From contig MPOS01000011.1 in the NCBI GenBank assembly GCA_001896555.1, positions 30,223 through 94,222 of the forward strand: a stretch of DNA of 64,000 bases. Reading direction: 5' to 3'. This document shows, piece after piece, positions 18,954 to 45,941 of this stretch. The stretch's first letter is position 1. Each line of letters starts with the position of its first letter. The translations under genes and the position numbers were made by a program. Source of the stretch: Candidatus Phosphitivorax anaerolimi. GTDB lineage: Bacteria > Desulfobacterota > Desulfomonilia > UBA1062. Under the pieces are notes generated by a model. That model did not search any database. It saw nothing but the letters and a program-made list of their open reading frames with translations, and was not told where the DNA came from.

Positions 18954-19946
18954 CTACTCGGCTGAGAAACTGTTGACGAGATCATAGACACCGGAAGTGG
19001 TCATGATGGAGACAATGGTGTTCTCGTCGATTCCGGTAGTCGGCATCATAAGTGCAAATGCGAGGAAGTCCTCCAACGTGTCCCTCACGTCGTTCTGCTC
19101 CGGCGCGGCCCTGTCGAATGCCCGGATGGCGTTGAGGACATTGATCAGGTCTTCCTGATAAGGGTTCAGAGATTGCGGATCATACGGCCCGAAATCACTC
19201 TCATCTACGCTGCTCCATCTGTACAGTATTCCCGAGGAGTAATTGATGTAATACTGATAGGCCGTTTTGTTAATGGGCACCGGTATCATTCCAGGATCCC
19301 AGTTCTCGGGATCCTGGGTCAGGGTGTAGTTCATGGCATCGGCAACCCGGTTGCCGGTGAATAAGATGAAGTGGGCCGCGGATGCCACTCCGAGCTGGAT
19401 CTCGTCATCGTCGGAATGGCGGTTCGCTCTGATCAGGATGTCCAGAATATACTGGGCCGACTCGAGGTTTTCGATAAGCTCGCCCGCACAGTATCCGTCG
19501 ATGAACAGCGCGTCCTTGTACAGGTCGTAATTCCTGTCATATTCATCGACAAAGACAAGCACGGTTCTGCTCTCTGCGTCGCACTTGCTCGTATCGTCAT
19601 CCTCGAGCTCTGGCGCGGGATAGAGGTCCAATATTTCCGCGACCATGTCGAAATTCTCTCGCTCTTCCAGCCCGGCAAAAAAGATGAGATTTACGAAATC
19701 GACCCCGGCCTTTCCCATGTACGCGGAGCTCAGAAGCCTCGATACCCGCGGGTCGGGGCTTGTGGTGGTGTAGATTTCCGTCAGCAGGTTGATGGCTGAC
19801 GTATAATCCAGATCATCGAGGGCAATGGCCGCTTCTTCGATAACGGCTTTGCGGCCCGAATCATCGGATATGCCCTCAAACGCACTGTCATTGCTGCACC
19901 CGGACAGCAAAAGGAGCAGCGCCAGTATCGTGGTGAATGCTTTCAT
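18954..19946 (-). CDS. Hypothetical lipoprotein
   Basis: Lipobox LLLLSGCS. Abuts the barrel gene on the same strand (0-bp gap), probably co-transcribed. Confidence 0.55.
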   Translation of the reverse strand: MKAFTTILALLLLLSGCSNDSAFEGISDDSGRKAVIEEAAIALDDLDYTSAINLLTEIYTTTSPDPRVSRLLSSAYMGKAGVDFVNLIFFAGLEERENFDMVAEILDLYPAPELEDDDTSKCDAESRTVLVFVDEYDRNYDLYKDALFIDGYCAGELIENLESAQYILDILIRANRHSDDDEIQLGVASAAHFILFTGNRVADAMNYTLTQDPENWDPGMIPVPINKTAYQYYINYSSGILYRWSSVDESDFGPYDPQSLNPYQEDLINVLNAIRAFDRAAPEQNDVRDTLEDFLAFALMMPTTGIDENTIVSIMTTSGVYDLVNSFSAE

Positions 19947-20488
19947 TCCAAGCCTCCTGCGGAAGAGAACGCCTTAATATTCACGGATTCCCCGGATAGC
20001 CATAAAAAGATTGTGCAAATTACACGCCATTATAACCGGTTCTTTTCTTATGTCAAAAGGATTTCCTGGGAGGGCGGTATGTCTTCCGGGAAAGGAGCAT
20101 ATCTTTGGCGCCGATGCCATTGCCCGATTTTCCTTCAAGGCAATGATTCCTGAGAGGATCTCCAGAGCGGATAACGTGTCGGTCGATGCTCAAAAAAACC
20201 ATACCGTCTCGTTCCGGCAGGCAGATGAGGGCCGGCGGGTGCTTCAGGCCATGTGCCTCATTCGGCAATGGAAAATCTTTTCGGATAATGGGTAAAAATT
20301 TACACACGAACCGGCTCTTCCCACAGGGGAAATGTGTCGCGCCTGCCATAAAGACATTCCTGAAGCGCATGCCAAAGAAGCTTACCGCCGGTTATCGAGC
20401 GGTTGGGAAGTGTACCCCCTGCCAGCATGGAAAACCGAAGATGCAGGAATAGAAATTGCATTTAAATAATTAAAAAGAATACTTACGA

Positions 20489-20509
20489 AGTAATGATGAT
20501 TCATTATTA
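20489..20509. promoter_or_regulatory. Palindromic operator AGTAATGATGATTCATTATTA (Fur-box-like), 110 bp upstream of the large lipoprotein gene.
   Basis: 16 of 19 positions are self-complementary. An identical 21-mer recurs at 23189-23209. It resembles the Fur consensus GATAATGATAATCATTATC. Confidence 0.5.
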
Positions 20510-20620
20510 GACAAGGGTGCAGGATGTATGGATTTGTCAGGGCATTTCGGATTCTTCTGCGGTATAATGATGTGAGAAACACGTGAGATCCGGCCTGTGG
20601 ACGATGCAGGAGATGCGGTG

Positions 20621-23044
20621 ATGAAGATACGTTCTATCTGGACCTTGCCGGCAGTGGGCTGTATGATGCTTTTCATGGCGTCCTGTTCCGGGAGCAGCCA
20701 TACCGATGAAGTGATCGCCGAAGAATCGATATACGACCCCGGCGCTCCCGTCTCGGCCGTGGGCTTTGGCGAGGCCTGCGGCATCCGGCTCTTTCTCCAG
20801 GATGAGAACGGCGGCCTTTCTCCCCTGAACGATGGCGATTATGTGGAACCCGGAAGCAGGAGGTTCGCGGTGGAAACTGCGTGCGACCCCTTGTCGATCG
20901 ACCGGGTGCTTGTTTCTGACGGAGCGGCCTACCAGGAGGAGGCCTTGCCCCAGGACGGCAGGTACACCTGCGAGTTCGCCGTGAGCGCAGACGATCTCTA
21001 CCAGGTCGTGCTCATCCAGGCCGTGCATCCGAGCGGGAGGGCGAGCAAGGAAAAGATCGTTCTTCGGACAGCCCCGCCCCTGCCTGCAGGTTCGTATGCG
21101 AAAAACGCCGTGGGAATACTCGTCGCCCAAGAGCTGCTCGATCTGCAGAAGCAGGATCTCGCGGCGCTTCTCGATGAGAAGATACAGGAGTTTTTCTCCT
21201 CCATCCGCCAAAACGGCCCTTCGTTCATAACCGATCTCCGTTATGGCGACAGCGATCCCTCTACCGTGGATGTCGTGGTCCACTCCATCGATGCGGTCCG
21301 TTTCGATGCTGAGCCGTCGGCGGTCCTTCGTGTTAGATTCACCATCCGGGACGTGACCCTCGCCGCCCTGCCCATGTTCGGCCAGGACTTCCTCTCGACC
21401 TCGGCAAACGATCTCCTGGTGGATGCGTATCTCGCCGTCGATGACTCGGGGGAGGGGGGAGAGGTCCGCCTGGTGCTCGATCTCCTGGATTCAGTGAGTG
21501 CCGCTTTTTCCCAGCCGTTTTTCCTCAGGAGCTCGATCGAGCACATGATCGCATCCGAGCTCAGGAAGATCGAGCTGCCCCCGCTCTCATTCGACTCGGC
21601 GGGCGGCGGATATGATCCTGCGGAATTCCTGCCCGGGCAGGTTGAGGTATTCGGCTCTGTCGTGAATGTCCATGAACTCATCGAAGGGTTCGAGCTCGAT
21701 CCCGGCAGGCGTTTCTTTGCAGACGTCTACAGCATTCCCGGGGCGACCACGCATGAGATGCTCGCGCTGGGTCTCGGGCTCTGCTCACAGACGTCCGAGG
21801 ACGTCTCCTGGAGTTTCCCGGATGAGGTTCCGCCCTCTGAAAGTTTGGATATGGAAAAAGTGGTCTGCGGGCTTTTCGAGGATGCCGTCAACGAGGTGTT
21901 CGAAGGTATCAGGCAGGAATACGTTGGCGTGGTGACGAGCCTTGCCTACGGGGACGGTGACCCGGCAACCGACGATGTTATCATCGACTCCTTCATCCTC
22001 GGCAATACGGACGATCCGGGTGTGAGGACCGCTTCCGTCCGGTTCACCGTGAAGCAGGTCGATCTGGAGGCGGCAACCCTGTTCGGGGTTCCGATCATCT
22101 CCACCCGGGACAACGACCTTGCCGTCGATGCCGTGTTTTTTATAGAGCAGAGGGATGATGATACGGGAAGATGGATGGTCCTCTCTCCCGATTCACGGAC
22201 GGACCCGGTCGTATCGTTTGGAACGTGGTTTCTCGGAAGAGAGCTCGTGGAGGAACTGGTCAGGCAGGATCTGAAGGAGATGGCATCCCGCCCGTACGGC
22301 ATCGACGAGCTGCTTGCAGGGTTCGGGCTCGGGCTCGATCCGGGCTCGGTGTTCACCTCGGAGCCGTACGCCCTGTTCCCCGACGTTTCTCCCTTCTTCC
22401 AGGACCCCGGATGTATTTTGGCACTGCCGGACACCTTCTCTGTGAGCCTCGCCGTATCCCAGAACGCGATCAACAGGCTTCTTGAGGATATCGCAGGGGC
22501 TCAAGCCGAGCGGGACGTCTACGAGCTGATCAAGAAGCTTCTGGGAGAGGACTTTCCGGGCTTCCGGAGAGAGCCTTCCGCGGGAGAGCAGACGGTCATG
22601 CGGCTGAGCGTGCCGCCCGCTGTCGATGTCAGAGACTCCCGGATTCGGCTTTCCATTCCGGATATCGTCTTCCAGTACCGGACATCGGGAGGGCCGCAGT
22701 GGGAGGCGTCCGTGGATGTATGCCTGACCGTCACACCCGCAGCGTATTGGAACCGGCTCGACATCGACCTTTCCTGCGTTTCCGGGAAGAACCGGTTCCA
22801 CGTGATGAGAGACAACCCCAGCAATCTCGGCATCTTCGACCATTCCTCCCTGGTCGAGGATATTCTGGGCGGTCTGCCCAGACTGCTCGGAGGCTCTCCG
22901 GGCTCCGCTTTCCTGTCGCTCGGGCTCGACAGCTGGGAGCCCTCGCTTGTCTTCGAGGACAGGGACGAGCCGGTGCTCATATCGGCAGGAGGCGGCTACC
23001 TATTTGTCGATATGGCGGTGGGCGGCATCGATATCCTGCAATGA
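20621..23044 (+). CDS. Large (about 807 aa) hypothetical lipoprotein with an internal domain duplication.
   Basis: Lipobox LFMASCSG. Repeated module: LRYGDSDPSTVDVVVHSIDAVRFDAEPSAVLRVRFTIRDVTLAALPMFG versus LAYGDGDPATDDVIIDSFILGNTDDPGVRTASVRFTVKQVDLEAATLFG. Confidence 0.6.
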   Translation: MKIRSIWTLPAVGCMMLFMASCSGSSHTDEVIAEESIYDPGAPVSAVGFGEACGIRLFLQDENGGLSPLNDGDYVEPGSRRFAVETACDPLSIDRVLVSDGAAYQEEALPQDGRYTCEFAVSADDLYQVVLIQAVHPSGRASKEKIVLRTAPPLPAGSYAKNAVGILVAQELLDLQKQDLAALLDEKIQEFFSSIRQNGPSFITDLRYGDSDPSTVDVVVHSIDAVRFDAEPSAVLRVRFTIRDVTLAALPMFGQDFLSTSANDLLVDAYLAVDDSGEGGEVRLVLDLLDSVSAAFSQPFFLRSSIEHMIASELRKIELPPLSFDSAGGGYDPAEFLPGQVEVFGSVVNVHELIEGFELDPGRRFFADVYSIPGATTHEMLALGLGLCSQTSEDVSWSFPDEVPPSESLDMEKVVCGLFEDAVNEVFEGIRQEYVGVVTSLAYGDGDPATDDVIIDSFILGNTDDPGVRTASVRFTVKQVDLEAATLFGVPIISTRDNDLAVDAVFFIEQRDDDTGRWMVLSPDSRTDPVVSFGTWFLGRELVEELVRQDLKEMASRPYGIDELLAGFGLGLDPGSVFTSEPYALFPDVSPFFQDPGCILALPDTFSVSLAVSQNAINRLLEDIAGAQAERDVYELIKKLLGEDFPGFRREPSAGEQTVMRLSVPPAVDVRDSRIRLSIPDIVFQYRTSGGPQWEASVDVCLTVTPAAYWNRLDIDLSCVSGKNRFHVMRDNPSNLGIFDHSSLVEDILGGLPRLLGGSPGSAFLSLGLDSWEPSLVFEDRDEPVLISAGGGYLFVDMAVGGIDILQ

Positions 23045-23188
23045 AAATACGCTCCCTGCGATGAAAAGACGAGGATAACCGGGAAATCTCCTGTTTCCGT
23101 GGGGTAGGGTTCTATAAGGGCGTCCAGTCGGGTTTTTTCGGAATGATAAAGGGATAAACAGAGGTTGCGAATAATACAGGATTTATAA

Positions 23189-23209
23189 GAGTAATGATGA
23201 TTCATTATT
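23189..23209. promoter_or_regulatory. Second copy of the palindromic operator AGTAATGATGATTCATTATTA, 130 bp upstream of the MMPL exporter gene.
   Basis: Exact 21/21 identity to 20489-20509, and exactly 2700 bp away. Confidence 0.5.
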
Positions 23210-23340
23210 ATTGATTGGGCTGTGATCTCGGGAACATAAGCCTGATACGCCGTGGCGGGAGAGGTTTCATCGCTGCCGGTGGCGGCTGCATGGGCACGGT
23301 AGGTACCGGGATGAATCCGGCTTGAACAAAGAGGGGGTAT

Positions 23341-25770
23341 ATGAAAAAAATCGTTCGCTTCAGTGTAAATCGCCCTTGGCGGGTGATCGGTGCCGTGCTC
23401 TGCATCACAGTGTTTTTCCTTTTCCAGATTCCCCGGGTGAAGATCGATCCCCGGGTGGAGATCGTCCTGAAACAGAACAACCCGGTGGAAGAGGTGTATA
23501 ACCGCAACAGACAGGAGTTCGAATCGTATGCGGACGTGCTCATCGGGATGCTCCATGACGACGTCTATAACCCCGGCTCGCTGGAAAAGATCCGCAGGAT
23601 CACCGAAGAGGTGGAAAACATCCCGGGGGTGAAGAAGGTCACCAGCATCCTCAACGTGAAGAACATTGCGGGCGGCGAGGAAGGACTCAACGTCTCCCCT
23701 ATGGTCGAAGAAGGAGAGCTGCCCAGATCAGGAGAAGAACTGAAGGAGCTGCGGGAAAAGGCGCGGTCCTGGAGCGTGTACGAGGGTGTTTACATCACTG
23801 AGGACGGCAGCGGCACGGCCCTATCCGTGGTGCTCGATAACACGGTGGAGACCGATGACATCGTACCCATCTATTACACCCTGCTCGACATCGTGAAGAA
23901 ATACGAAGGACCGGAAGAGTTCTTCATCTCCGGGCCCACGGTGGTGGAGGCGCTTCAGGGACACTACATGATCAAGGACCTGAAGCTCCTGGTGCCCCTG
24001 GTCAATATCGTCCTGCTGGGGTTCCTATTTCTGTTCTTCCGGAACTTCAGGGGCACGGTGCTTCCCCTTGTCTCTGTAGGCATAGCATCCATCTGGACCA
24101 TCGGCCTGATGCCCATGTTCGACATCCCGTTGACCATGGTCACGAGCGTGCTTCCCGTGGCCCTGATCGCCGTGGGCTCTGCCTACGGCATCCATGTTCT
24201 GGAAAACGTATTTTCAGACGCGGAAGAGGGGAAGGCGGGCCTGTCCGGCATCATCACCGCGGCCACCCGTGTGAGCCTGCCCGTGATCATGGCGGGGCTC
24301 ACCACCATTGCATCGTTCATATCCCTGTGCACTTCCGCCATCGTCCCCTTAAAGCAGTTCGGCGCCCTGTCGAGCTTCGGGCTCCTCGCCGCGCTCATGA
24401 TATCGCTGACGTTTCTGCCTGCAGTGCTCGCAGTGGCAGACTCCCGGGGATGGAAATACCGGCCCCACCACCATTCGAGCAGGGACTGCATCGGGCCGGT
24501 GCTGGTATTCTTTTCCCGTATCAGCCTGAGAAGGAGCGGGCTCGTTCTGGGAATCAGTGCCGTCCTGCTCGTCCTTTCGGTGGGTGGCGGCCTTCAGGTC
24601 AAGAGCGACCTGAACCTCATCGAGGACTTCCGGAAGGGGAGCCCCATCCGCATCGCGGATGAGGTGCTGAATGAAAAATTCGGAGGAACGTCTCTGTTCA
24701 ATGTGGTGCTGGACGGCATGGAGCCCGACGATATCAAGGACCCCGCCGTCCTGCGCGAGATGGACGCCCTTCAGAACAGGCTCATGGGCATGAACAATAT
24801 CGGAAAGGCAGTGTCGGTGGTGGACTTCATCAAGCGGATGAATCAGGCCATGCACGACGGAGATCCGGCGTTCTATACCATCCCCGAATCAAAGGACCTC
24901 GTGGCCCAGTACCTGCTCCTTTTTTCATTCTCGGGCGGGAGCGGCGAGCTCGACAGCTTCGTGAACTTCGACTGCAAAAGCGGTCAGATCCTGCTGCAGA
25001 TGAAATCCCAGAGCGGGTATCTGGCACAGGATGTGGTGAACCTGGTCAACGGCTATCGGAAGCAGGAGCTGAAGACCTCCCGCGTCGCGGATATATTCAC
25101 CACCGGCCTGGCCATGCTTGCAAAGGAGTTCAACCGCCTGGTGGTGGAAAGCCAGGCCAGCAGCTTCGCTGTTTCCTTTATCCTGGTAATTTTCATCGTC
25201 TCCGCGATGTTCAGGTCCTTCAAGCTGGGGTGCTACAGCGTGGTGCCGCTCGTGGTTCCCATTTTCCTGAACTTCGGGATCATGGGTCTGACGGGCATCA
25301 AGCTCAATGCCGCGACAGCAGTGATCGCCAGCCTTGCTATCGGCATCGGCATTGACTACTCCATCCATTTTCTCAGCCGGTACCGTCACGAGATCACGAT
25401 GCAGGGCAGCGTGGAAAAGGCCATCGAGAGATCGCTGCACACCTCCGGCAGAGCAATTCTGTACAACGCCCTTGCTGTTGCGGCGGGCTTTCTGGTTCTC
25501 GTGCCGTCGAACTTCGTCATCATCAGTCAGCTGGGCATACTCGTGGCCCTGGTCATGATCACCACATCACTTGCATCTCTCACCCTGCTGCCCGCCATAC
25601 TCAAAGTATTTCCCCCCCGGCTGGCTCACAGAACGGCCGAGACGACAATGTCGGTGTTTCCCGCCCGGGTTTTTCCTCAAGGTGTTCATCCCGGAGAGGA
25701 AAATGTGGTAGGATATCAGTACAAAACAACGGACAGACCAACGAACAGGAGGATCGAACATGACATGTAG
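23341..25770 (+). CDS. MMPL/RND-superfamily exporter.
   Basis: Twelve-TM, two-lobe architecture with large periplasmic loops, typical MMPL topology and motifs. Length 809 aa. Confidence 0.8.
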   Translation: MKKIVRFSVNRPWRVIGAVLCITVFFLFQIPRVKIDPRVEIVLKQNNPVEEVYNRNRQEFESYADVLIGMLHDDVYNPGSLEKIRRITEEVENIPGVKKVTSILNVKNIAGGEEGLNVSPMVEEGELPRSGEELKELREKARSWSVYEGVYITEDGSGTALSVVLDNTVETDDIVPIYYTLLDIVKKYEGPEEFFISGPTVVEALQGHYMIKDLKLLVPLVNIVLLGFLFLFFRNFRGTVLPLVSVGIASIWTIGLMPMFDIPLTMVTSVLPVALIAVGSAYGIHVLENVFSDAEEGKAGLSGIITAATRVSLPVIMAGLTTIASFISLCTSAIVPLKQFGALSSFGLLAALMISLTFLPAVLAVADSRGWKYRPHHHSSRDCIGPVLVFFSRISLRRSGLVLGISAVLLVLSVGGGLQVKSDLNLIEDFRKGSPIRIADEVLNEKFGGTSLFNVVLDGMEPDDIKDPAVLREMDALQNRLMGMNNIGKAVSVVDFIKRMNQAMHDGDPAFYTIPESKDLVAQYLLLFSFSGGSGELDSFVNFDCKSGQILLQMKSQSGYLAQDVVNLVNGYRKQELKTSRVADIFTTGLAMLAKEFNRLVVESQASSFAVSFILVIFIVSAMFRSFKLGCYSVVPLVVPIFLNFGIMGLTGIKLNAATAVIASLAIGIGIDYSIHFLSRYRHEITMQGSVEKAIERSLHTSGRAILYNALAVAAGFLVLVPSNFVIISQLGILVALVMITTSLASLTLLPAILKVFPPRLAHRTAETTMSVFPARVFPQGVHPGEENVVGYQYKTTDRPTNRRIEHDM

Positions 25771-26554
25771 AAGCCTGGCAGGATTGTTTCTTGGGCTGAT
25801 GGCGGCCGTCGCCGTGGTTCTGACGGCTCAGGGTCCGGCTGTGGGCGCGGAGATGAGCGCGTATGACATCGTGAAGAAGGCCGAAGACCTTCTCGACCAG
25901 GCCAAGGACAGCAAGGCCGACATGATCATGACCCTCGTGAACGACAAGGGCCAGAAGCGCGAGAGGAAGCTCAGCGCATTTGTAAAGAAATACGGGGAGA
26001 ACAGCTCGAAATCCATCCTGTTCTTCAACTCTCCGGCAGACGTCAAGGGCACAAGCTTTCTGGTGTGGACCGAAAACAAGGAAGACAAGCAGTGGCTCTA
26101 CCTCCCGGCTCTGCAGCGGGTGCGGCAGATCAGCGCGAGCGGCAGGGGAGAGAGCTTCATGGGCACCGAGCTCACCTTCTTCGACATGGGCAGCCACGAC
26201 ATCGACGAATACACCTTCAAAACGATCAAGGAAGAGGATGTCGACGGCGAGATGTGCTACATGATCGAGGCCCTGCCCAGGAAGGTGGAGTTCTACAGCA
26301 AAATCGATCTCTGGATCCGCAAAGACAGCTTCATCCCCGCAAAGGCGGATTTCTACGACCCCAAGGGCCGGTACGAGAAACAGGGCAGGTTCTCTCAGGT
26401 CAAGAACATCCAGAACATCAACACCCCCACACGCATCGAGATGCACAATGTGCAGAACGGCAGGACGACCATCATCGAGCTGAGCGATGTGGTGTATGAC
26501 TCCGGGCTGAAAGATGATATATTCACCGAGAGATACATGAAAAGGGGAAAATGA
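25760..26554 (+). CDS. Outer membrane lipoprotein-sorting (LolA-like) protein associated with MMPL exporters.
   Basis: Signal peptide. Segment KLSAFVKKYGENSSKSILFFNSPADVKGTSFLVWTEN...QWLYLPALQRVRQIS is typical of the LolA-like partner of MMPL/DUF1302 clusters. Confidence 0.7.
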   Translation: MTCRSLAGLFLGLMAAVAVVLTAQGPAVGAEMSAYDIVKKAEDLLDQAKDSKADMIMTLVNDKGQKRERKLSAFVKKYGENSSKSILFFNSPADVKGTSFLVWTENKEDKQWLYLPALQRVRQISASGRGESFMGTELTFFDMGSHDIDEYTFKTIKEEDVDGEMCYMIEALPRKVEFYSKIDLWIRKDSFIPAKADFYDPKGRYEKQGRFSQVKNIQNINTPTRIEMHNVQNGRTTIIELSDVVYDSGLKDDIFTERYMKRGK

Positions 26555-26813
26555 GATCGGAATGCCGGACCGCGAACACAGCAGAACCGTTCATTTCTGC
26601 AAGACTCGATTGCTTGGGCTCCCTCTCCCCTTGCAGGAGATGGATAGGGTGAGGTGGAAATAAAGTCACAGCTTCCACGCCTTCTCTCTGCCCCTCTGGG
26701 TACCCGCTTCAGCGGTTCGTGCGGAGGGGGCCCTGAGGGATTGCATGGTGGAGAATGCAACAGCCCCGAGTTTTGCGGAAGAAGGTGAGAGAACACACAA
26801 GAGCCGCGCACAA

Positions 26814-27164
26814 ATGCCGAAAACTCACGTCAGGCGCACCAGAGACCTCAGGAAGCGCTCCACCGACACAGAGCAGCCTCTCCGGCGGCACCTGCTGGCA
26901 AGGCAGATGTCAGGCCAGAAATTCAGTCGCCGGCAGACAGCCGGCGATTATATTGTCGATTTTCTCTGCTGTGAGAAAAGGGTGATCATCGAGCTCTATG
27001 GAGGCCAGCACGGCATTCACCAGGAAAAGGACATTATGCACGATTCATGGCTCAAAAAGCAGGGCCTTCGAGCTCTCCGGTTCAGGAACAACGAGGTTTT
27101 TTCCAATACTGACGGGGCACTGCAGACTGTCCCGGATGCATGCTCAGGGGGGGACGGGGCTTGA
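26814..27164 (+). CDS. DUF559 (Vsr-like endonuclease fold) protein.
   Basis: Segment LRKRSTDTEQPLRRHLLARQMSGQKFSRRQTAGDYIVDFLCCEKRVIIELYGGQH...LRFRNNEV matches the DUF559 consensus. I trimmed to the MPKTH start. Confidence 0.7.
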   Translation: MPKTHVRRTRDLRKRSTDTEQPLRRHLLARQMSGQKFSRRQTAGDYIVDFLCCEKRVIIELYGGQHGIHQEKDIMHDSWLKKQGLRALRFRNNEVFSNTDGALQTVPDACSGGDGA

Positions 27165-27298
27165 TCTTCAATTTCAACTCCCCCCACCCTGTCCCGCCTC
27201 CACTCAAGGAGGAGGGCGCGTGCACCCGTCGCGCCCAGCAGGGCTTCGCAGTGGGAGAGGGTCGGCGCTCCATTCCCCGGCATGCCGCTCAACTGCTG

Positions 27299-28792
27299 AT
27301 GCTGCTGGCTGCAGCGTTCATCCCGGCCTTCTTTTCCCCGCTCTACGCTTATGAGTACGATGGCGAGAACCTGGACATCTCCCTGAGCGGCTATCTCGAG
27401 GCCGGCGCCGTCTACGTACTGGACGACGAGTCGCCGGACGAGGATCCCACCACCGAGCTTGGCCTCGAGCTCAAGGCGGACTTTTCGACCGTGTCCACGC
27501 TCAAGATTTTTCTCCAGGCGGTGAACGACGGGACAGTCATCGACCCCCAAAACGGTCTGCTGTTCAATGAATTCGACAAGGTCTATCAGGACAAGAACCC
27601 GTACGTCGATATCGACGAGGCCTATGTGGACCTGTACTCGTCCTTCGTTGATCTGCGCATCGGCATCCAGAAGTTCGCCTGGGGCAGACTCGACGAGATC
27701 AACCCCACCGACAACCTCAACCCCGAGGACTTCAGGCATGGCATCACGGCCGACGAGATCGACCGGAAGATCGGCGTGCCCGCTCTCCGGGCCAACACGT
27801 ATTCGGATATCGTCAATGTGGAGCTGGCCTGGATACCCTGGTTTGTCCCCTATCGTCTGCCCACACCCGAGGAACGGTGGTTTCCGGGCGTGCTTCAGCC
27901 TCCTTCGTCTATCGACACCGGCACGTCGGCCGGCGCCATCCCGGTGGCCGCCCGATACAAGGATGTCGACGTCCCCGAGTTCAGCCTCGACGACTCCCAG
28001 GCAGGGATCCGACTGTCGAAATATGTCGGAGGCTGGGATCTCTCCGTAAGCTATTTCAGGGGCTACGATACCGTACCGCTCACCGATGTGGTCTCCGACC
28101 TTACCGTGGACCTTATCGACCCGCTGTCCCTCTCGTACGACCTTGCCCTAGACCTCACCTATCAACCGGCTCTCCATCGGATCCAAGTCTTCGGCTTCGA
28201 CTTCGCCACCACGGTGAGCTCGTTCACCATCCGCGGCGAGTTCGCTTATTTCAAGGGCAGGCATTACAACCGCAAGCTCGAGTCCGTTCTCAGGCAGGAG
28301 ATCACCCCGGCCCGCCAGCAGGCGATCATCGACGAGTTCATGCAGAACTATCTCGACTCCGGGGGGGCGGCGTCGCGGCAGACCTTCCGCATCGACCCGG
28401 AGGTGAACATCCAGATGGATTCCATGAAGTACGGGCTCGGCATCGACTATATCTACGGCGACACGAGCGTAAGCCTGCAGATGATCCAGGAGCTCATACC
28501 GGACTACGACAGGGACAGGCCGGTCTACTTCAACAAGGAGGGCCTGGATACCTTCCTCACCCTTCAGCTCAAGCAGTTCTTCCTCCAGAACACCATGGAG
28601 CTCGACCTGCGCGCCGCGTACGGCATCGAGTTTCAGGAGTATCTCGTGAAGCCCTCGCTGAAGTACAATTTCACCAACACGCTGCAGGGATCTATCGGGG
28701 TCGTGGTCCTGGGCGGCAAATACGACGACTCGCTCCTGGGTCAGTTCGACGACAACGACCAGATCTATGCGTTGCTGAAGTGCTTTTTCTGA
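27299..28792 (+). CDS. Outer-membrane protein, DUF1302-like, partner of the MMPL and LolA-like genes.
   Basis: Signal peptide MLLAAAFIPAFFSPLYA. Alternating beta-strand-like pattern. C-terminal KCFF ending in Phe. Genomic context with the MMPL and LolA-like genes. Confidence 0.5.
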   Translation: MLLAAAFIPAFFSPLYAYEYDGENLDISLSGYLEAGAVYVLDDESPDEDPTTELGLELKADFSTVSTLKIFLQAVNDGTVIDPQNGLLFNEFDKVYQDKNPYVDIDEAYVDLYSSFVDLRIGIQKFAWGRLDEINPTDNLNPEDFRHGITADEIDRKIGVPALRANTYSDIVNVELAWIPWFVPYRLPTPEERWFPGVLQPPSSIDTGTSAGAIPVAARYKDVDVPEFSLDDSQAGIRLSKYVGGWDLSVSYFRGYDTVPLTDVVSDLTVDLIDPLSLSYDLALDLTYQPALHRIQVFGFDFATTVSSFTIRGEFAYFKGRHYNRKLESVLRQEITPARQQAIIDEFMQNYLDSGGAASRQTFRIDPEVNIQMDSMKYGLGIDYIYGDTSVSLQMIQELIPDYDRDRPVYFNKEGLDTFLTLQLKQFFLQNTMELDLRAAYGIEFQEYLVKPSLKYNFTNTLQGSIGVVVLGGKYDDSLLGQFDDNDQIYALLKCFF

Positions 28793-29037: not shown

Positions 29038-31851
29038 TCAGCTCAAAGAGAGGAGATACGATCTCAGGTTCGCCTTTTCTTTCTTCAGCCCCAGCTTGTC
29101 TCTGATGTTGTTCCGGTGGAACTCTACGGCACGCTTGGAAATGTTGAGCAACTCCGAGATTTCCTTGGTCGACTTGCCCTCGCGCACCAGGTTCGCCACC
29201 TGGATCTCGGTGGGGGTGAGATTCAGATATTGGGCGGAGAGCTTCTGGAGGAAGGGAGAGATGATGTCGCCCAGGCTCGATTCCAGGAGCTGCACGTAGG
29301 CGGCCTGCCTGTCGTCGAGCGAGCATGCCTTGAGCTTTTCCAGATAGGGCAGGGCCAGCTCCTTGATGTTGGACAGGACCTTTTCCTCGAGCTCCTTCTT
29401 GTCCTGCTCGCCGCGCTTGAGCAGCACCTTGAGCGCGGTGTTGGCCTCCTCGAGATTCAGCGACTTGAGCTGAAGCTCCTCTTCCTTGCGCATGAGCGTC
29501 TGCTCGGCCAGCTTGCGCTCCTCGATCTCCCGCTTCAGCCTGATGTTCGCCCGGACGAGCTCCTCGGTCCGCTCCTCGACCCGTTGCTCGAGGCTCTCGT
29601 AGGCCTTCTGCAGCTTCTGCTCGGTGAGCTTGCGCTCGGTGATGTCCACGAACGAGCACAGCAGGCAGATGGGCCTGCCGTTCTCGTCCTTCACCATGCT
29701 CGCGGAGAGCTGCACCGCGATGGGCGTCCTGTTTTTCTTGACCGCGATGATCTCCCCGAACCAGGTGCCCTTTGCGAGCACGGTCTGGAGAATAGCGTCC
29801 GCGTCTTCCCGGGACTGGGCGAAGGTGAGCGCCGACTTTCCCAGGACCTCGGACGGATCCTTGCCGCCCCACATGCGGAGAAAGGCATCGTTGACATAGG
29901 TGATGTTGCCCTGAAGATCGCCGATAGCGATGCCGTTGATGGATGACGAGATGGCAAAGTCCTTGACCCTGAGCTCCTCTTCCATCTTCTTGCGCTCGGT
30001 GATGTCCACGAACGAGTCCATCACGCAGATGGGCTCGCCCCTGTCGTTGTACACCATGCTTGCCGAGAGGTGGACCGTGATCGGCGAGCCGTCGCTCCGG
30101 AAGCCGGACACCTCCCCTGACCAGCTTCCCTTCTCCACCACGGCCTGGAATATCTCCAGGGCTTCTTCTTCCGACTGCGCCAGATCGAGAACCGACCTGC
30201 CCAGTACCTCGGAGGGGTCTTCAGCACCCCACATGGCCAGCGCCGCGTCGTTGACGTAAGTGATCTTCCCTTCCAGATCACAGAAACCGATGCCGTCGAT
30301 GGACGAGGCGATGGCGTTTTCCCTGACCCTGAGCTCCTCTTCCATCTTCTTGCGCTCGGTGATGTCAACGAACGAGTCCATCATGCAGATGGGCTCGCCT
30401 TTGTCGTTTTTCACCAGGCTTGCCGAGAGCAGGACCGTAATCGGCGAGCCGTCCTTGCGGAAGCCGGACACCTCGCCCGTCCAGCTTCCCTTTTCCACGA
30501 TGGCCTGGAAGATCTCCAGGGCCTCCTGCTCGGATTGCGCGAGGTCCAGCGCAGACCTTCCCAGCACATCGGAGAGATCGCTGTCTCCCCACATCTTCAG
30601 GGCCGCATCGTTCACATAGGTGATTCTGCCTTCCAGATCGGAAATTCCGATGCCGTTGATGGACGAGGCGATGGCGTATTCTTTTATCTGTAGATCCTCC
30701 TCCATCTTCTTGCGCTCAGTGATGTCCACGAACGAGTCCATCATGCAGATGGGCTCGCCTTTGTCGTTTTTCACCAGGCTTGCCGAGAGCAGGACTGTAA
30801 TCGGCGAGCCGTCCTTGCGGAAGCCGGACACCTCGCCGGTCCACCCGCCTTTCTCCAGAACGGCCTGATAGATTTCTATGGCCTCTTCCTCCGACTGGGC
30901 TAGACTGAGCGCCGAGGTGCCGATGACCTCGGACGCATCCGGGGCCCCCCACATCTTCAGGGCCGCGTCGTTGACGTAGATAATGTTGCCCTCCAGGTCC
31001 GATATGCCGATGCCGTTGATGGACGACGCTAGGGCATTGTTCCTGATGCGCAGCTCCTCCTCCATCTTCTTGCGGTCAGTGATGTCCACGAACGAGCACA
31101 TGATGCAGATGGGCTCGCCTTTGTCGTTTTTCACCAGGCTTGCCGAGATGAGCACGGTGAAAGGATCACCGACTTTCCTCTTTGCGTTGACCTCTCCCTC
31201 CCACCTGCCGCTGGTGCGGATGGTGTCGATAATATCGAGGATCTCCTCCTGTGACTGGGCGAAAATCATCGCAGGTTTTCCCAGGACCTCATCGGGCTTT
31301 CCGGCACCCCACATCTTCAGGGCCGAATCGTTTGCATAGGTGATGACGCCGTCGAGGTCGGCGATGACGATGCCGTTGATGGACGAGGCCAGGGCGCTTT
31401 CCTTGACCCGCATCTCTTCTTCCATTTTCTTGCGGTCGGTGATGTCCACGAATGAGCACATCATGCACACGGGCTCGTTCGATTCATTGCGGACCAGGCT
31501 GGCCGAGAGCAGGACGGTGACCGGCGAGCCGTTTTTCCGCCGGCCGTTGATCTCTCCCGTCCAGTCGCCTTTGCACAGCACGGTCTCCATGATCTCCAGG
31601 GCCTCCTGCTCGGACTCGGCGAACACGGTCACCGGCTTGCCGATGATCTCCGCTGGGTCGGTCCCGCCCCACATCATGACGGCTGCCTGGTTCACATAGG
31701 TGATGGTGCCCTGCAGGTCGCCGATCGCAATGCCGTTGATCGACGATGCGATGGCGAACTCCTTGATCCGCAGCTCTTCCTGGATATACCTGAGCTCGTC
31801 GATCTTGTCTTTCAGGGGCTTGACTTCCTCGCTCATGCGGCTCGGCGGCAT
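29038..31851 (-). CDS. LuxR-family transcriptional regulator with eight tandem PAS domains and a C-terminal GerE-type HTH.
   Basis: C-terminal TPTEIQVANLVREGKSTKEISELLNISKRAVEFHRNNIR. Eight repeats of about 120 aa, each ending DITDRKKMEEELR/DITERKKMEE. Confidence 0.85.
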   Translation of the reverse strand: MPPSRMSEEVKPLKDKIDELRYIQEELRIKEFAIASSINGIAIGDLQGTITYVNQAAVMMWGGTDPAEIIGKPVTVFAESEQEALEIMETVLCKGDWTGEINGRRKNGSPVTVLLSASLVRNESNEPVCMMCSFVDITDRKKMEEEMRVKESALASSINGIVIADLDGVITYANDSALKMWGAGKPDEVLGKPAMIFAQSQEEILDIIDTIRTSGRWEGEVNAKRKVGDPFTVLISASLVKNDKGEPICIMCSFVDITDRKKMEEELRIRNNALASSINGIGISDLEGNIIYVNDAALKMWGAPDASEVIGTSALSLAQSEEEAIEIYQAVLEKGGWTGEVSGFRKDGSPITVLLSASLVKNDKGEPICMMDSFVDITERKKMEEDLQIKEYAIASSINGIGISDLEGRITYVNDAALKMWGDSDLSDVLGRSALDLAQSEQEALEIFQAIVEKGSWTGEVSGFRKDGSPITVLLSASLVKNDKGEPICMMDSFVDITERKKMEEELRVRENAIASSIDGIGFCDLEGKITYVNDAALAMWGAEDPSEVLGRSVLDLAQSEEEALEIFQAVVEKGSWSGEVSGFRSDGSPITVHLSASMVYNDRGEPICVMDSFVDITERKKMEEELRVKDFAISSSINGIAIGDLQGNITYVNDAFLRMWGGKDPSEVLGKSALTFAQSREDADAILQTVLAKGTWFGEIIAVKKNRTPIAVQLSASMVKDENGRPICLLCSFVDITERKLTEQKLQKAYESLEQRVEERTEELVRANIRLKREIEERKLAEQTLMRKEEELQLKSLNLEEANTALKVLLKRGEQDKKELEEKVLSNIKELALPYLEKLKACSLDDRQAAYVQLLESSLGDIISPFLQKLSAQYLNLTPTEIQVANLVREGKSTKEISELLNISKRAVEFHRNNIRDKLGLKKEKANLRSYLLSLS
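29560..31720. repeat. Tandem array of about 360-bp direct repeats (about 6-7 units) encoding the PAS modules of the regulator. Units 30360-30720 and 30720-31080 are near-identical.
   Basis: Out-of-frame ORFs recur at 30260, 30620, 30980 and 31340 with near-identical translations. The protein segment GEVSGFRKDGSPITVLLSASLVKNDKGEPICMMDSFVDITERKKMEE is repeated. Confidence 0.8.
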
Positions 31852-31978: not shown

Positions 31979-32959
31979 TCAGAACGGGATCACCACGCCG
32001 ATGGAAAAGGTTGATATGATCTCCTGCTCGAACACACCAATCTTGACGGGATCTTCAGGGTTATACGAGGACATGTCGTCGCCCTCGTAATAGTCGGGGT
32101 CTCTGGTTTTGTACGACACCTCCAGCACGGGGTCGAAGTTGTCCAGATCATACATGGCCGCGCCGGCCTCCGCCACGAGTCTGATATTGTTCTTGAACGG
32201 GATATAGATCCCGGCAAAGACCTGCAGGAGCTGCCCGAACACGGTTTCGGAATCATCGAGCCTGATCCGGTATTCAGACCCCTGGTAAGACTGCTCTCTG
32301 ATCGCGTCGCTTTCCACCTCGCGCGTCGCCATGCAGAAACCCAGGCCCCCTCCGATATAGGGGTTGATCCTTTTTTTGTCTCCTCCGTGGTGCTCGTAGA
32401 CGATGTTGAATGAAAGGGGCACGATGTAGAGCGTGGTGTCGAGGTCGACTCTCCGGAGCAGCTCGGCGCTGGTGATGATGGCCTCTCCTTCACCGCGGTA
32501 GCTGCTGCCCAGGTTTTTGTCGTTGATGTCCTCTGCGGTGACGCCCGGCTCGTTGGAGCCGGGGAAGGTCTCTTCCGCCTCCATGATGATCGACTCCCGG
32601 TTGCTGCCCGTGTCCCACTCCCCCCTGAGCATGATCACCTCGAGCGAGGCGAGGAACGAGATCTTTTCCTTGATCTTTTTTTTCGCACCCAGCGAGACGG
32701 ACAGTCCGTAGTCGAGGAAATCACGGAAGTCGCTGTCGTACACCGCGAATGCGCCGCCGGATTTTATCGAGTAGGAGAAGGTCTGGTCGCGGGGAAACTG
32801 CTGTTTTCTGGGCGCCGACACCAGGATCTCTTCGTCCTGGGTGAGGGCTGCCTTCATGGCGGGAGACTCGGGATTTGCCGTGCGTGAGAGGTTTTCGGAA
32901 CTCCAGACAACGAGCGGAAACGCCAGGATAAAAACAGTGTATGCAGCTATACGGCTCAT
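31979..32959 (-). CDS. Hypothetical outer-membrane beta-barrel protein.
   Basis: Signal peptide MSRIAAYTVFILAFPLVVWSS. C-terminal FSIGVVIPF ending in Phe. Alternating hydrophobic pattern. Confidence 0.5.
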   Translation of the reverse strand: MSRIAAYTVFILAFPLVVWSSENLSRTANPESPAMKAALTQDEEILVSAPRKQQFPRDQTFSYSIKSGGAFAVYDSDFRDFLDYGLSVSLGAKKKIKEKISFLASLEVIMLRGEWDTGSNRESIIMEAEETFPGSNEPGVTAEDINDKNLGSSYRGEGEAIITSAELLRRVDLDTTLYIVPLSFNIVYEHHGGDKKRINPYIGGGLGFCMATREVESDAIREQSYQGSEYRIRLDDSETVFGQLLQVFAGIYIPFKNNIRLVAEAGAAMYDLDNFDPVLEVSYKTRDPDYYEGDDMSSYNPEDPVKIGVFEQEIISTFSIGVVIPF

Positions 32960-33382
32960 TATAACGATCCTTAAGGCCCTTTCTTTCATATGTGCTGCCT
33001 GGAAAAAACATCCTCACCCCCGGCTGCCGCAAGGGGATAACATGTGTTCGATTCACGAGTCATGCAAGAATTATTCCCTGCCATCTATTTCGCAGGAAGC
33101 GGATAAGACTTGACATTTTATCCATGAATCTTTCATGATCCGCAGCCTGAAAGAAAATAATTTCTCCTAAAGGGCAAAACCTTGCATATTCACAAGTGAC
33201 TGCCCTTGTGATCATATCTGTTGCAATGGCGGGGCAAAGATGATTAAATAAAACAGCCATAATGAGGTCCGCTCCCGTGATTGCTGCGTTTGTCTGTTAT
33301 GCAATGGATACTGATCCAGGTCTCATCTGCAGTCATCTCTGCCGAGCAGGACGGCGAGAACCTGTGTAGGAGGTTAGAACAT

Positions 33383-35737: not shown

Positions 35738-36784
35738 ATGAAGAGAGTATTGACGTTTTTGGCTATCATGTTGCTGCCATTGTCCGTAATGGCAATGACA
35801 CCGGTTTCCGACCAGACCCTCTCCGATGTTACCGGCCAGGCCGGAGTCAACATCAATGCTGACCTTATGATGGACATCGCCATCGGCACCATGGCATGGG
35901 GCGATGCCGACGGTATCACTGCAAGCGGCAGCTGGCCTACCTGGGGCACCACTGCTGACGGCGGCTACGTGGGAGTCACCGGGTTCGACATTGACGGCCT
36001 GAGAATCAAGGCCCGCGAAACCGACACCTATCACGAATATGCGGCACCTGCACAGCTGAAGCCCATCACCATCGACGTTGCCACCGATCCAAACATCTAC
36101 GACGGAGCGACCTTTGTGCGGTTCGGCCTCGGCTCCCTCCAGATCACCATGGGCGCCCTCGACTTCGACGTGAGGCTCGGGACTGACGCGGCAACCCTCG
36201 CGGCTTCCGGCAACCTGCTCGGTGTTGTGAGCATCGGCGCCATGGGCATCTACATCGATCCCAAGAGCTATGTTGACATCTTCTCCGACGGCACCTGCGG
36301 CGTGAACATAGCCATGGACATCGAGATCGATCAGTTCAACATCGGCTACGTGTCCTGGGGCGACACCGACGGCGTGACCAACACAGGCATGGGCGCGATG
36401 CCCTGGATGGCTGCGGCTAGCGCCGGTTATGTCGGACTTGCCAACCTCGAGATCGGCGGCCCGATCACCGTCAGCGGTCAGCTGGCAATCGATGTCAACA
36501 CCGCCTATGCCGGCATCTACTCCCACGGCATAGTCGGGACCGATGCGGGCGCAGCCCCTGTGAGCGTTGTTCACATCCAGTTCGGCTCCGACGTCTACTC
36601 GGATCCCACTCTGGGCGCTGCTGACCTCTTCTCCGTACTCGTCGGCCCGATCACTGCCGAGGTGAAACTCGACGGCGTGGCAGCCCTGGACGGCGCCAAT
36701 GCCGGCACGCTGGGCGACATCTACATCAGCAGCTTCGGCCTCGACATCTATGGCGGCAGCTGGGTGGACATCTGGGCCCACTAA
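35738..36784 (+). CDS. Secreted protein, paralog A (348 aa). It carries the N-terminal LSDVTGQAGV motif, internally duplicated WGDxDG modules and the C-terminal SWVDIWAH.
   Basis: Signal peptide MKRVLTFLAIMLLPLSVMA, mature N-terminus MTPVSDQTLSDVTGQAGVNIN. The duplication WGDADGIT...GGYVGVTGFDIDG versus WGDTDGVT...AGYVGLANLEIGG. Confidence 0.7.
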   Translation: MKRVLTFLAIMLLPLSVMAMTPVSDQTLSDVTGQAGVNINADLMMDIAIGTMAWGDADGITASGSWPTWGTTADGGYVGVTGFDIDGLRIKARETDTYHEYAAPAQLKPITIDVATDPNIYDGATFVRFGLGSLQITMGALDFDVRLGTDAATLAASGNLLGVVSIGAMGIYIDPKSYVDIFSDGTCGVNIAMDIEIDQFNIGYVSWGDTDGVTNTGMGAMPWMAAASAGYVGLANLEIGGPITVSGQLAIDVNTAYAGIYSHGIVGTDAGAAPVSVVHIQFGSDVYSDPTLGAADLFSVLVGPITAEVKLDGVAALDGANAGTLGDIYISSFGLDIYGGSWVDIWAH

Positions 36785-36811
36785 TCAACTGCTGACTCAT
36801 GTGTAATCGAG

Positions 36812-36839
36812 AAAGGAGGGTTGGCTGCAACCCTCCTTT
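36812..36839 (+). terminator. Perfect 12-bp-stem hairpin AAAGGAGGGTTG-GCTG-CAACCCTCCTTT between paralogs A and B. Candidate partial terminator or mRNA stabiliser.
   Basis: Read from the sequence, 28 bp after the paralog A stop. There is no strong U-tract. Confidence 0.45.
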
Positions 36840-36898
36840 CTCTTCCAGGGAACATCATGCAATGCGGTGACAGGTGAGAATCGGAGGAAGAGAATTTT

Positions 36899-37924
36899 AT
36901 GAAGATAATGAAAAGCGCATCACTGGCCGTGCTGATCGTTGCGTTCCCGCTCTCCATGATGGCCATGACGCCGGTGCGGGATCACGATCTCTCCCAGGTG
37001 ATCGGCCAGGCCGGTGTGAGCATCAATACCGACATCATGATGAACATCGCCATCGACACCCTGGCATGGGGTGATTACGACGGCATTTTCGAAGGCGGCC
37101 ATCCCTCCTGGGGCACCACCGCTGACGGCGGCTATGTGGGACTGGCCGGGTTCGACGTCATCGGGCTCAGGATCAAGGCCCGCGAAAACGACACCTTCGG
37201 CGGGTATTCCGCTGCAGCGGACTTCAAGCCGATCACCATCGACGTCGCCTCCGACCCGACCTACAGCCTCTACAGCGGGTTCACCTTCGTGCGGTTCGGC
37301 CTCGGCTCCCTCCAGATCACCGTGGACCAGATGGACTTCGCGGTCTTTCTTGCAGCCCCCGGCGCCCCGGGCCAGGTGCTCGGCACGGTAAATCTCGGCG
37401 CGCTCGCCATGTACGTCAACCCGTGGAGCTACGTAGACATCTATAACAGCAGGCCGGGCAACCAGTGCGGGGTTTTCGTGACCATGAGCGTCGTGATCGA
37501 CCAGCTCGATATCGGCTATCTGTCGTGGGGCGACATTGACGGCGTGGCCAATGAAGGCATCGGCGCGATGAGCTGGATGTCAGATGGCGCGCAGGGAGCC
37601 GGCTATGTCGGGCTCTCCAACCTGCGAGTGTGGGGGCCCATCATCATGCAGGGAACGGTCGCCATCGATGTGACGACCTCGTATGAAGGCATCTACGCCC
37701 ACGGCTCGTTTGGGGACCCGGGCTGGGCCCCTGTGAGCGTTGTGCACATCGGGTTTCCCCAGGTATTCAGCCTGGATGTGGCGGGACCCATCACCGCCGA
37801 TGTGAAGCTGGACAGCTTCGCTTCCCTGAACAGTCCTGATGCCGGCACACTGGGCAACATCTATATCTCGGGACTCGGCATCGATATCCTGAACCGCAGC
37901 TGGGTGGACATCTGGGCGCACTGA
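36899..37924 (+). CDS. Secreted protein, paralog B (341 aa). A tandem duplicate of paralog A.
   Basis: Signal peptide, then MTPVRDHDLSQVIGQAGVSIN. Same WGDxDG modules and the identical C-terminus SWVDIWAH. Confidence 0.7.
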   Translation: MKIMKSASLAVLIVAFPLSMMAMTPVRDHDLSQVIGQAGVSINTDIMMNIAIDTLAWGDYDGIFEGGHPSWGTTADGGYVGLAGFDVIGLRIKARENDTFGGYSAAADFKPITIDVASDPTYSLYSGFTFVRFGLGSLQITVDQMDFAVFLAAPGAPGQVLGTVNLGALAMYVNPWSYVDIYNSRPGNQCGVFVTMSVVIDQLDIGYLSWGDIDGVANEGIGAMSWMSDGAQGAGYVGLSNLRVWGPIIMQGTVAIDVTTSYEGIYAHGSFGDPGWAPVSVVHIGFPQVFSLDVAGPITADVKLDSFASLNSPDAGTLGNIYISGLGIDILNRSWVDIWAH

Positions 37925-38114
37925 GCCCTCTCCGAGAGTCAAGCCCCGAGGCGCGGCACTGGTATAGATTCTTGAGGATGAAGATCAGGCTCTTGAGGCA
38001 GGGAAATTTTTCTTGCCTGTCTCAAGATAATGAGTGAATAGATCGAAGAGACAGTATGTGCAGAAAACAAGTGCAGGTTCGTATGGAGCGGCGGGAATGA
38101 AAGGAGATAAAGGT

Positions 38115-45712: not shown

Positions 45713-45941
45713 ACTGCTGCTGCACTCTCCGCCCTTTCCTGAAATTTCTGCATGCAGGTTTCGTCTGCCTTTTTGCCGGGTATTTCGAGCAGATGGTGCC
45801 ATTCCTCCAAAGTATTGGCGTGTAGGGTATACGGCATTCGAGAAAAGAAGCAAGATGTAAATGAAGCTCATGACGCCCGATCGTTCATGCTTTCACTGGA
45901 AAAAAATATGGAGATCGGGTAATGTGTTCGAATATTATTCG

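Follow-up and report, generated by a model that had tools for sequence, protein, structure and literature searches.

Why do two adjacent transcription units carry the same 21-bp sequence in front of them? In a stretch of 64,000 nucleotides from Candidatus Phosphitivorax anaerolimi (contig MPOS01000011.1, positions 30,223 to 94,222; hereafter the window), the sequence AGTAATGATGATTCATTATTA precedes both a lipoprotein gene and an operon that encodes an MMPL exporter, a LolA-like protein and a DUF1302 protein. The original prediction for this locus held that the two copies are Fur-box-like operators through which a Fur-family or other dimeric repressor controls the lipoprotein and the exporter together, and it suggested a metal-responsive export function. 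Based on our results, we conclude that both 21-mers are probably consensus-strength copies of an operator for a dimeric helix-turn-helix regulator, most likely a repressor, and that they belong to a clade-wide regulon.

There are exactly two copies of AGTAATGATGATTCATTATTA in the window, both on the + strand. Copy 1 sits 112 nt 5' of the ATG of the lipoprotein gene and copy 2 sits 131 nt 5' of that of the MMPL gene. The original prediction was right that the two are identical, and it needs one correction: the second copy is at 23190-23210 and not at 23189-23209, so that the copies are 2701 bp rather than 2700 bp apart. The 19-bp core, TAATGATGA-T-TCATTATTA, is self-complementary at 16/19 positions, as had been stated. 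No third match occurs in the window at up to three mismatches, and none is expected (100 shuffles). The window is about 57% G+C, and only 4 of the 21 bases of the element are G or C. Identity ends at 21 bp: directly outside the element, copy 1 is flanked by cga and gac and copy 2 by aag and ttg. Because the flanks diverge immediately, the copies are not pieces of a longer duplicated segment, which is thereby ruled out.

What is conserved beyond the window is the palindrome and not the whole 21-mer. A search with the MMPL protein led to 35 loci from related metagenome-assembled genomes (MAGs; L001-L035, of which L001 is a duplicate of the window locus), and the element kept across these loci and across 13 metagenome loci is TAATGA-N4-TCATTA. 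The window and L001-L035 contain 38 exact matches, all with the 4-bp spacer; spacers of 0-3 and 5-8 bp do not occur. When L001 is excluded, 37 exact sites remain, compared to 0 in 50 shuffles of the 528 kb. A position weight matrix (PWM) built from 46 sites gives RR-TAATGA-NNN(T)-TCATTA-YY, an even 6-4-6 inverted repeat with half-sites one helical turn apart. About 40 of the 46 sites have all twelve core bases unchanged, while the four central bases vary. The last spacer position is T in 39 of 46, and this orientation always follows that of the gene downstream. PWM scores fall into two groups, with sites at 25-38 bits and almost nothing between 10 and 25. Copy 1 scores 35-36 bits and copy 2 scores 36-39 bits; shuffled DNA (528 kb) gives 4 matches of at least 10 bits, and a PWM scan of the window found no weaker additional site above 8 bits beyond these two. 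The majority consensus of the 43 non-redundant sites that remain when those of the window, L001 and L024 are left out equals the window 21-mer at 21/21 positions, and L024 has the same 21-mer 5' of an unlinked paralogue of the MMPL gene. Thus, the two copies in the window are identical because both are consensus sites, and not because of a duplication. We consider the cis-element, predicted from sequence, to be a well-supported conserved operator.

A site of this kind could also act in RNA, as a hairpin (UAAUGA-loop-UCAUUA) in a 5' leader. With predicted promoters upstream of them, all of the sites are probably transcribed, and the T at the last spacer position is strand-specific. However, the stem has no compensatory changes, and the flanking R/Y pairs do not covary (5 A-C combinations observed versus 4.7 expected). 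There is no Rfam match in 19900-23400, and an RNA hairpin or riboswitch was dismissed on these grounds. A duplicated or mobile remnant fares no better, given the unrelated flanks and the lack of any duplication or terminal-repeat structure, and the expectation for a chance match is zero. Even taken together, we find these three explanations highly improbable.

The spacing of the element bears directly on whether it is a Fur box. Fur-family boxes with readable symmetry (7-1-7, 9-1-9 and 7-3-7) are all odd-centred, and those described for deltaproteobacteria are WTGAAAATNATTTTCAW for Fur, ATGCAACNNNGTTGCAT for Zur and GTTAATGATAATCATTAAC for PerR of D. psychrophila (PMC545781). The resemblance that had been noted is real in part. 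Like the E. coli Fur box, the element is AT-rich with TAATGA...TCATTA, about 15 of 19 positions agree by eye when one gap is allowed, and the D. psychrophila PerR box is related to it. Without a gap, however, the match to the E. coli box falls to 10 of 18-19 positions (10/18 for the 21-mer), that to the PerR box is 11/18, and the best match to the Fur consensus of the lineage is just 9/16. Furthermore, the spacer is strictly N4 and never N3 (38 versus 0), the centre is free to vary, and the dyad lies between bases. A phmmer search with an E. coli Fur sequence as query found no Fur homologue in the window and L001-L075 (about 0.8 Mb) among the open reading frames (ORFs) that reach 60 codons, and Pfam scans of the window's main ORFs found no gene of the Fur, TetR or MarR family. 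The suggested metal-responsive or siderophore-like function fits the targets no better, as there are no iron, zinc or peroxide genes among them. Because all of the targets are MMPL/HAE3 transporters or the BPI-like lipoprotein, they tentatively point to lipid or hydrophobe handling rather than siderophore export. The N4 spacing, the free centre, the poor matches and the absence of a Fur gene and of any metal-related target leave the Fur reading unsupported, and it is very doubtful that the element is a Fur, Zur or PerR box giving metal- or peroxide-responsive control. A full-text literature search for TAATGA/TCATTA operators returned only Fur papers and noise, and the case illustrates that a Fur-box resemblance of AT-rich palindromes is unreliable without a test of spacing.

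The location of the sites in other genomes indicates what the operator controls. Orthologous loci have the element 5' of both units, even where the MMPL protein is only about 57% identical. The site at the lipoprotein gene is present in L004, L011, L014, L015, L016, L019 and L033, and the closest relatives (L002, L003 and L029) have a degenerate form of it, TAATGAyaatTCACTC. Sites at the MMPL gene occur in 20 or more loci, as one site or, more often, as two that are 94-140 bp apart. In L002-L035, all sites are 5' of an MMPL or lipoprotein gene, with the exception of one extra site in L033. With the same element at both units in the orthologues, co-regulation of the lipoprotein gene and the MMPL/LolA-like/DUF1302 operon by a dimeric regulator, as originally proposed, is very probable.

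The element is not confined to this gene cluster. Stand-alone MMPL paralogues with 60-62% identity (L009, L012 and L013) have the two-site layout; their gene neighbourhoods are unrelated and include no nearby regulator. In L010, L024 and L031, other paralogues have single sites upstream, and a third class of paralogue is preceded by weaker sites of 18-20 bits. An independent scan of metagenomes for two sites 95-125 bp apart returned 40 stretches, 13 of which have a recognisable MMPL-family gene, and in all 13 the sites are directly 5' of that gene; two of the 13 genes encode proteins that are only 26% identical to the MMPL protein of the window. The remaining stretches were mostly low-G+C tandem repeats or chance matches. 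Since the element, usually as two sites, is also found at unlinked MMPL paralogues in related Syntrophaceae and 'Desulfomonilia' MAGs, we postulate a clade-wide regulon of exporters for envelope lipids or other hydrophobes.

Several other arrangements of the element were seen. In L002 (near 9835), L003 (near 9702) and L029 (near 9609), the MMPL operator is followed after 5 nt by an additional half-site, RAATGAT (TCATTAttaatRAATGAT), which the window lacks and which may provide a second, overlapping binding register. A fourth operator copy, at 16283-16298 of L033 (also in L056 at 4543), lies between the stop codons of the DUF1302 and PAS-LuxR genes, behind a good promoter (TTGCAT-17-TATAAA) that reads into the PAS-LuxR gene in antisense. 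A GC-rich hairpin comes next, and the arrangement could drive an operator-controlled antisense or small RNA. On low-G+C metagenome contigs (L036, L041, L043, L050, L052, L060, L063, L065, L067-L070 and L073), TAATGA-N4-TCATTA occurs within regular tandem arrays with periods of about 24, 33, 31-43, 57 and 71 bp, and such arrays seem to have nothing to do with the operator. For the paired sites, looping of the DNA with helical phasing was considered and rejected, as the site-to-site distances show no 10.5-bp periodicity.

The positions of the operators relative to predicted promoters suggest how they might act. An element of the form GG(A/T)A(T/C)-N5-TTGC(A/T) (GG-N10-GC with TTGCW), which resembles a sigma54-type -24/-12 promoter, is at the same place in 11/11 orthologous lipoprotein loci examined, and the operator starts 23-36 nt after it in all 11. 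When the four closest loci are aligned, the intergenic region shows a single conserved island, made up of this element and the operator. If the GC is taken as -13/-12, then the core of copy 1 would be at about +21 to +36 of the predicted transcript. The sigma54 pattern alone is not rare (4 observed versus 1.9 expected in the window), and no Sigma54_activat domain was found by Pfam among the window ORFs scanned; the gene for a cognate activator may be located elsewhere. About 110-140 nt 5' of the sigma54-like promoter, at window positions 20309-20340 or so, there is a block, ATGGAAAATCTTTTCGGATAATGGGTAAAA, that includes the near-palindrome GAAAATCTTTTC and is found in L029 and partly in L002. 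From its sequence it is a candidate enhancer for a sigma54 activator.

At the MMPL gene, the putative promoters are of the sigma70 type. A TTGCNN hexamer is 21 nt before the site in the window, L003, L029 and L015, and the site thus overlaps the -10/+1 region; in L011, L014, L016, L019 and L033 the hexamer is 28 nt before the site, with a -10 hexamer at 17 nt. In the window, a predicted promoter TTTATA-18-TATTAT (23182-23211) overlaps copy 2. The distal MMPL site is 4-6 nt after a sigma70-like promoter in many loci, for example TTGCAC-17-TATACA in L011, TTGCCT-17-TATATT in L014 and TTGACA-16-TATTTA in L009. Promoter-like matches of at least 8/12 that end no more than 12 nt 5' of the site were found at 17 of 46 sites, compared to 6 of 46 in the reverse orientation and 14% of AT-rich controls. 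The geometry expected of an activator was looked for and rejected, because inspection revealed no consistent -10 element 20-27 nt 3' of the proximal sites. Sites that are downstream of, or overlap, two types of promoter point to repression, and from these positions both units would be repressed.

The system probably works as follows. A dimeric helix-turn-helix regulator would recognise RR-TAATGA-NNN(T)-TCATTA-YY at both places. Copy 1 would lie about 20 nt 3' of the start from the sigma54-type promoter of the BPI-like lipoprotein gene, and copy 2 would overlap the core of the sigma70-type promoter of the MMPL(HAE3)/LolA-like/DUF1302 operon. Once bound, the operators would prevent transcription of both units at once, at initiation or early in elongation. 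The signal that relieves the block is probably a lipid or a hydrophobic metabolite and not a metal.

Which regulator binds the operator? One possibility, tentatively held, is the product of the adjacent gene, a LuxR-type protein with a PAS array and a GerE helix-turn-helix domain that would act as a ligand- or redox-sensing 'solo' and bind the 6-4-6 palindrome as a dimer. It is the sole DNA-binding regulator near the sites, and its gene is convergent with and directly 3' of the operon in 9/9 loci with enough flank (L002, L003, L004, L006, L008, L011, L019, L029 and L033). The even 6-4-6 geometry, with half-sites about 10 bp apart, fits a protein of this kind, although it is generic to many helix-turn-helix dimers. 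NarL/LuxR-family proteins often bind N4-spaced even palindromes, for example ComA (6-4-6) and SsrB (7-4-7), and the nearest solved helix-turn-helix domains to that of the PAS-LuxR protein include those of ComA, SsrB, GerE and EL222. Lastly, in Pseudomonas putida, a LuxR-type regulator that adjoins DUF1302/DUF1329 genes has the same fitness phenotype as those genes, which are under its positive control (bioRxiv 10.1101/2020.07.04.188060).

Other observations speak against the PAS-LuxR protein as the binder. A genome with the same synteny (L076-L079) retains g336 and the PAS-LuxR gene without the operon and without sites; the protein there has one PAS domain and a DNA-binding module that is 83% identical. 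No site is 5' of the g336/PAS-LuxR unit in any locus, and the motif is also found 5' of unlinked MMPL genes with no LuxR gene nearby. From the positions of the sites one would expect repression, but in the Pseudomonas precedent the regulator is an activator. The recognition helix (RAVEFHRNNIRxKLG) hardly varies in more than 2000 homologues, be they fused to PAS, to REC or to nothing, and paralogues with an almost identical helix occur in unrelated contexts without TAATGA sites, a comparison that is uninformative.

The PAS-LuxR gene has features of its own. At window positions 29812-31781 it contains a 360-nt tandem repeat of 5.5 copies with 74-81% nucleotide identity, which is the PAS array. 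Orthologues have one (P0004), six (window) or seven (L033) PAS domains; since this number varies, the sensor array expands and contracts. A second sigma54-like element, GGAATAATTCTTGCA, is at 33063-33077 on the - strand, 88 nt before the start of g336 (31979-32989). It is identical in L003, and related elements are present in L004 and in the operon-less genome (L076/L078). About 70 nt further upstream there is a near-palindrome, GGAGAAATTATTTTCT, that is a possible enhancer site.

The operator could instead be bound by an unlinked TetR-family (FadR-like) or similar small repressor that is released by fatty acyl-CoA, a fatty acid or some other lipid. The FadR box of Bacillus, WTGAATGAMTANTCATTCAN, has the same AATGA-N4-TCATT core and spacing (PMC5397183), and of the known boxes tested it matched best (12/17 positions). 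TetR repressors typically use operators over or 3' of the promoter, and several of them per promoter, and a regulon that extends over unlinked MMPL paralogues fits a trans-acting regulator. There is also a precedent for lipid-responsive repression of mmpL genes: the TetR protein Rv3249c of Mycobacterium tuberculosis represses several of them and palmitate releases it (stated in PMC5397183). On the other hand, no TetR, MarR or Fur gene is beside any site in the approximately 0.8 Mb of DNA fetched. The sole TetR gene found, 3' of the DUF1302 gene in L005/L045, carries a different palindrome of its own, TTAACATACTGAC-CA-GTCAGTATGTTAA (13-2-13, L005 5775-5802), that is unrelated to the TAATGA element, and this local TetR was rejected as the binder. 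The outer half-site bases of the FadR box also differ from those here (R-T and A-Y), and the likeness is a resemblance and not a test. We rate the PAS-LuxR protein and an unlinked TetR/FadR-like repressor about equally, each being a serious but unproven candidate.

Several points weigh against an operator for a dimeric repressor as we describe it. No regulator gene carries a site of its own. The bias towards T at the last spacer position is a slight asymmetry for which a simple symmetric dimer does not account. The promoters and transcription starts are predictions, with the role of the operator being based on sequence, and the -10 element of the window's own MMPL promoter is unclear. Finally, the only experimental precedent for DUF1302/DUF1329 genes is positive LuxR-type control and not repression (bioRxiv 10.1101/2020.07.04.188060).

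The genes around the predicted operators are found in a conserved order. An HhH-GPD gene, a TraF_2/PorV-like gene and g330 are on the - strand, followed on the + strand by the lipoprotein, MMPL, LolA-like and DUF1302 genes, and then by the PAS-LuxR gene and g336 on the - strand. The features of the locus are listed below.

Features of the predicted operator locus (coordinates are positions in the 64,000-nt window)
Feature	Position	Strand	Basis or remark
Sigma54-type -24/-12 promoter element GGAATagaaaTTGCA of the lipoprotein gene (putative)	20446-20460	+	Conservation; function inferred
Operator copy 1 (predicted)	20489-20509; core TAATGAtgatTCATTA, 20491-20506	+	Exact 21-mer
Lipoprotein, 807 aa, lipobox MASC	20621-23044	+	Predicted BPI/LBP-like lipid-binding fold
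-35-like hexamer TTGCGA	23165-23170	+	21 nt 5' of operator copy 2; inferred promoter
Operator copy 2 (predicted)	23190-23210; core 23192-23207	+	Exact 21-mer
MMPL / HAE3-family RND transporter	23341-25770	+	PF03176, 1e-47
LolA-like periplasmic protein	25760-26554	+	PF17131, 1.7e-61
DUF559 (Vsr-like endonuclease) ORF	26745-27164	+	Pfam
DUF1302 putative outer-membrane beta-barrel protein	27140-28792	+	PF06980, 2.1e-11; synteny conserved
PAS x6 + GerE/LuxR helix-turn-helix regulator	29038-31851	-	Pfam; convergent with the operon

The lipoprotein matched no Pfam or NCBIfam family and belongs to a tiny family of 17 homologue clusters. Its AlphaFold2 (AF2) model, of moderate confidence (pLDDT 67.8), has an N-terminal Ig-like domain followed by repeated units of a helix and a long sheet. 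The best solved structures in a Foldseek search are BPI (1ewf, E 1e-6) and LBP (4m4d), with E values of 1e-6 to 1e-4 and low TM-scores, and the modelled fold may tentatively be said to resemble those of BPI/LBP (TULIP) lipid-binding proteins. An internal duplication of the lipoprotein was not borne out by BLASTP self-comparison, which was empty at E<1e-3; the AF2 model nonetheless shows repeated units. The domains of the HAE3/MMPL, LolA-like and DUF1302 proteins (PF03176, PF17131 and PF06980), encoded in one cluster, are all above cut-offs. The MMPL pump scores best against TIGR00921 (HAE3), with 272.6 bits (cut-off 351.9), and is also HpnN-like, both scores being below the curated cut-offs. 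Syntrophaceae bacterium UBA1062 (phylum Thermodesulfobacteriota) has a pump protein of 100% identity to it. Between the LolA-like and DUF1302 genes there is an inserted ORF, that of DUF559, which runs into the start of the DUF1302 gene; by tblastn it is found only in the 100%-identical L001 and not at other orthologous loci.

Elsewhere in the window, a perfect sigma70 consensus, TTGACA-16-TATAAT (12/12), is at 20029-20056 on the - strand, about 80 nt 5' of the divergent g330 (18954-19946). At 35738-38999 there are three tandem paralogous DUF6160 genes that share identical stretches of DNA (e.g., 36005/37172 and 36756/37896), followed by a C39 peptidase-like gene, a MetA phenol-degradation-type outer-membrane gene and a FadL/TodX-like outer-membrane gene. 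An ORF considered as a second MMPL gene (45861-48287) is actually that of a TPR protein, and an 88-aa CxxCH ORF 5' of copy 1 is not conserved in relatives and is thus probably not a gene.

What would such a regulon mean? The motif and its regulon are new examples of a familiar type, from an uncultured lineage. The host group, uncultured syntrophic Thermodesulfobacteriota, is central to the methanogenic degradation of fatty acids and hydrocarbons, and its gene regulation is hardly known. The 16-bp core and strict spacing offer a testable cis-regulatory code for the MMPL/HAE3 exporter family, and the motif could help to map the extent of the regulon in complete genomes and to track down its regulator. 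It would also tie four poorly characterised families (DUF1302, LolA-like, HAE3 and the BPI-like lipoprotein) into one predicted co-regulated unit. A more specific proposal, which we consider rather unlikely, is that the six-PAS 'solo' LuxR-type sensor uses TAATGA-N4-TCATTA to repress a trans-envelope lipid exporter and the unlinked MMPL paralogues in syntrophic Thermodesulfobacteriota. If true, the exporter, composed of an HAE3 pump, a LolA-like carrier, a DUF1302 barrel and a BPI/LBP-like lipoprotein, would be previously undescribed. Envelope lipid homeostasis in these degraders of fatty acids or alkanes would then follow a new regulatory logic, with an operator downstream of both a sigma54 and a sigma70 promoter.

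Each part of the proposed system has relatives among known ones. The Fur boxes of E. coli (GATAATGATAATCATTATC) and deltaproteobacteria share an AT-rich TAATGA/TCATTA palindrome at promoters; unlike the even element described here, with its strict 4 bp and free centre, they have an odd, conserved centre, and TAATGA and TCATTA stand 3 bp apart. FadR (YsiA) of Bacillus is closer, in that its box has the 4-bp spacer within the shared core and is a repressor operator at lipid-metabolism promoters, with more than one operator or dimer per promoter (PMC5397183). In contrast, the outer bases of the FadR box are TGAATGA/TCATTCA rather than GTAATGA/TCATTAY, its targets are in beta-oxidation rather than export, and it comes from an unrelated lineage. 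The element described here has no linked TetR gene. Rv3249c and the mycobacterial mmpL genes are alike in the lipid-responsive repression of MMPL genes. LuxR/NarL-type systems share the 6-4-6 even repeat and a GerE-type gene that adjoins a DUF1302/LolA-like cluster; the half-site is unrelated, the site position here suggests repression and not activation, and the candidate binder has six PAS domains but lacks a receiver or an AAA domain. The exporter itself is most readily compared with AmeABCD of Castellaniella defragrans, a monoterpene efflux system that consists of an HAE3 RND pump, a DUF1302 outer-membrane protein, a DUF1329/LolA-like protein and a BNR protein (PMC6394551). The HAE3/MMPL pump, the LolA-like periplasmic protein and the DUF1302 barrel are common to both; the fourth component is the BNR (BNR/Ycf48-like) protein in AmeABCD, whereas in this locus it is a lipoprotein with a predicted BPI/LBP-like fold.

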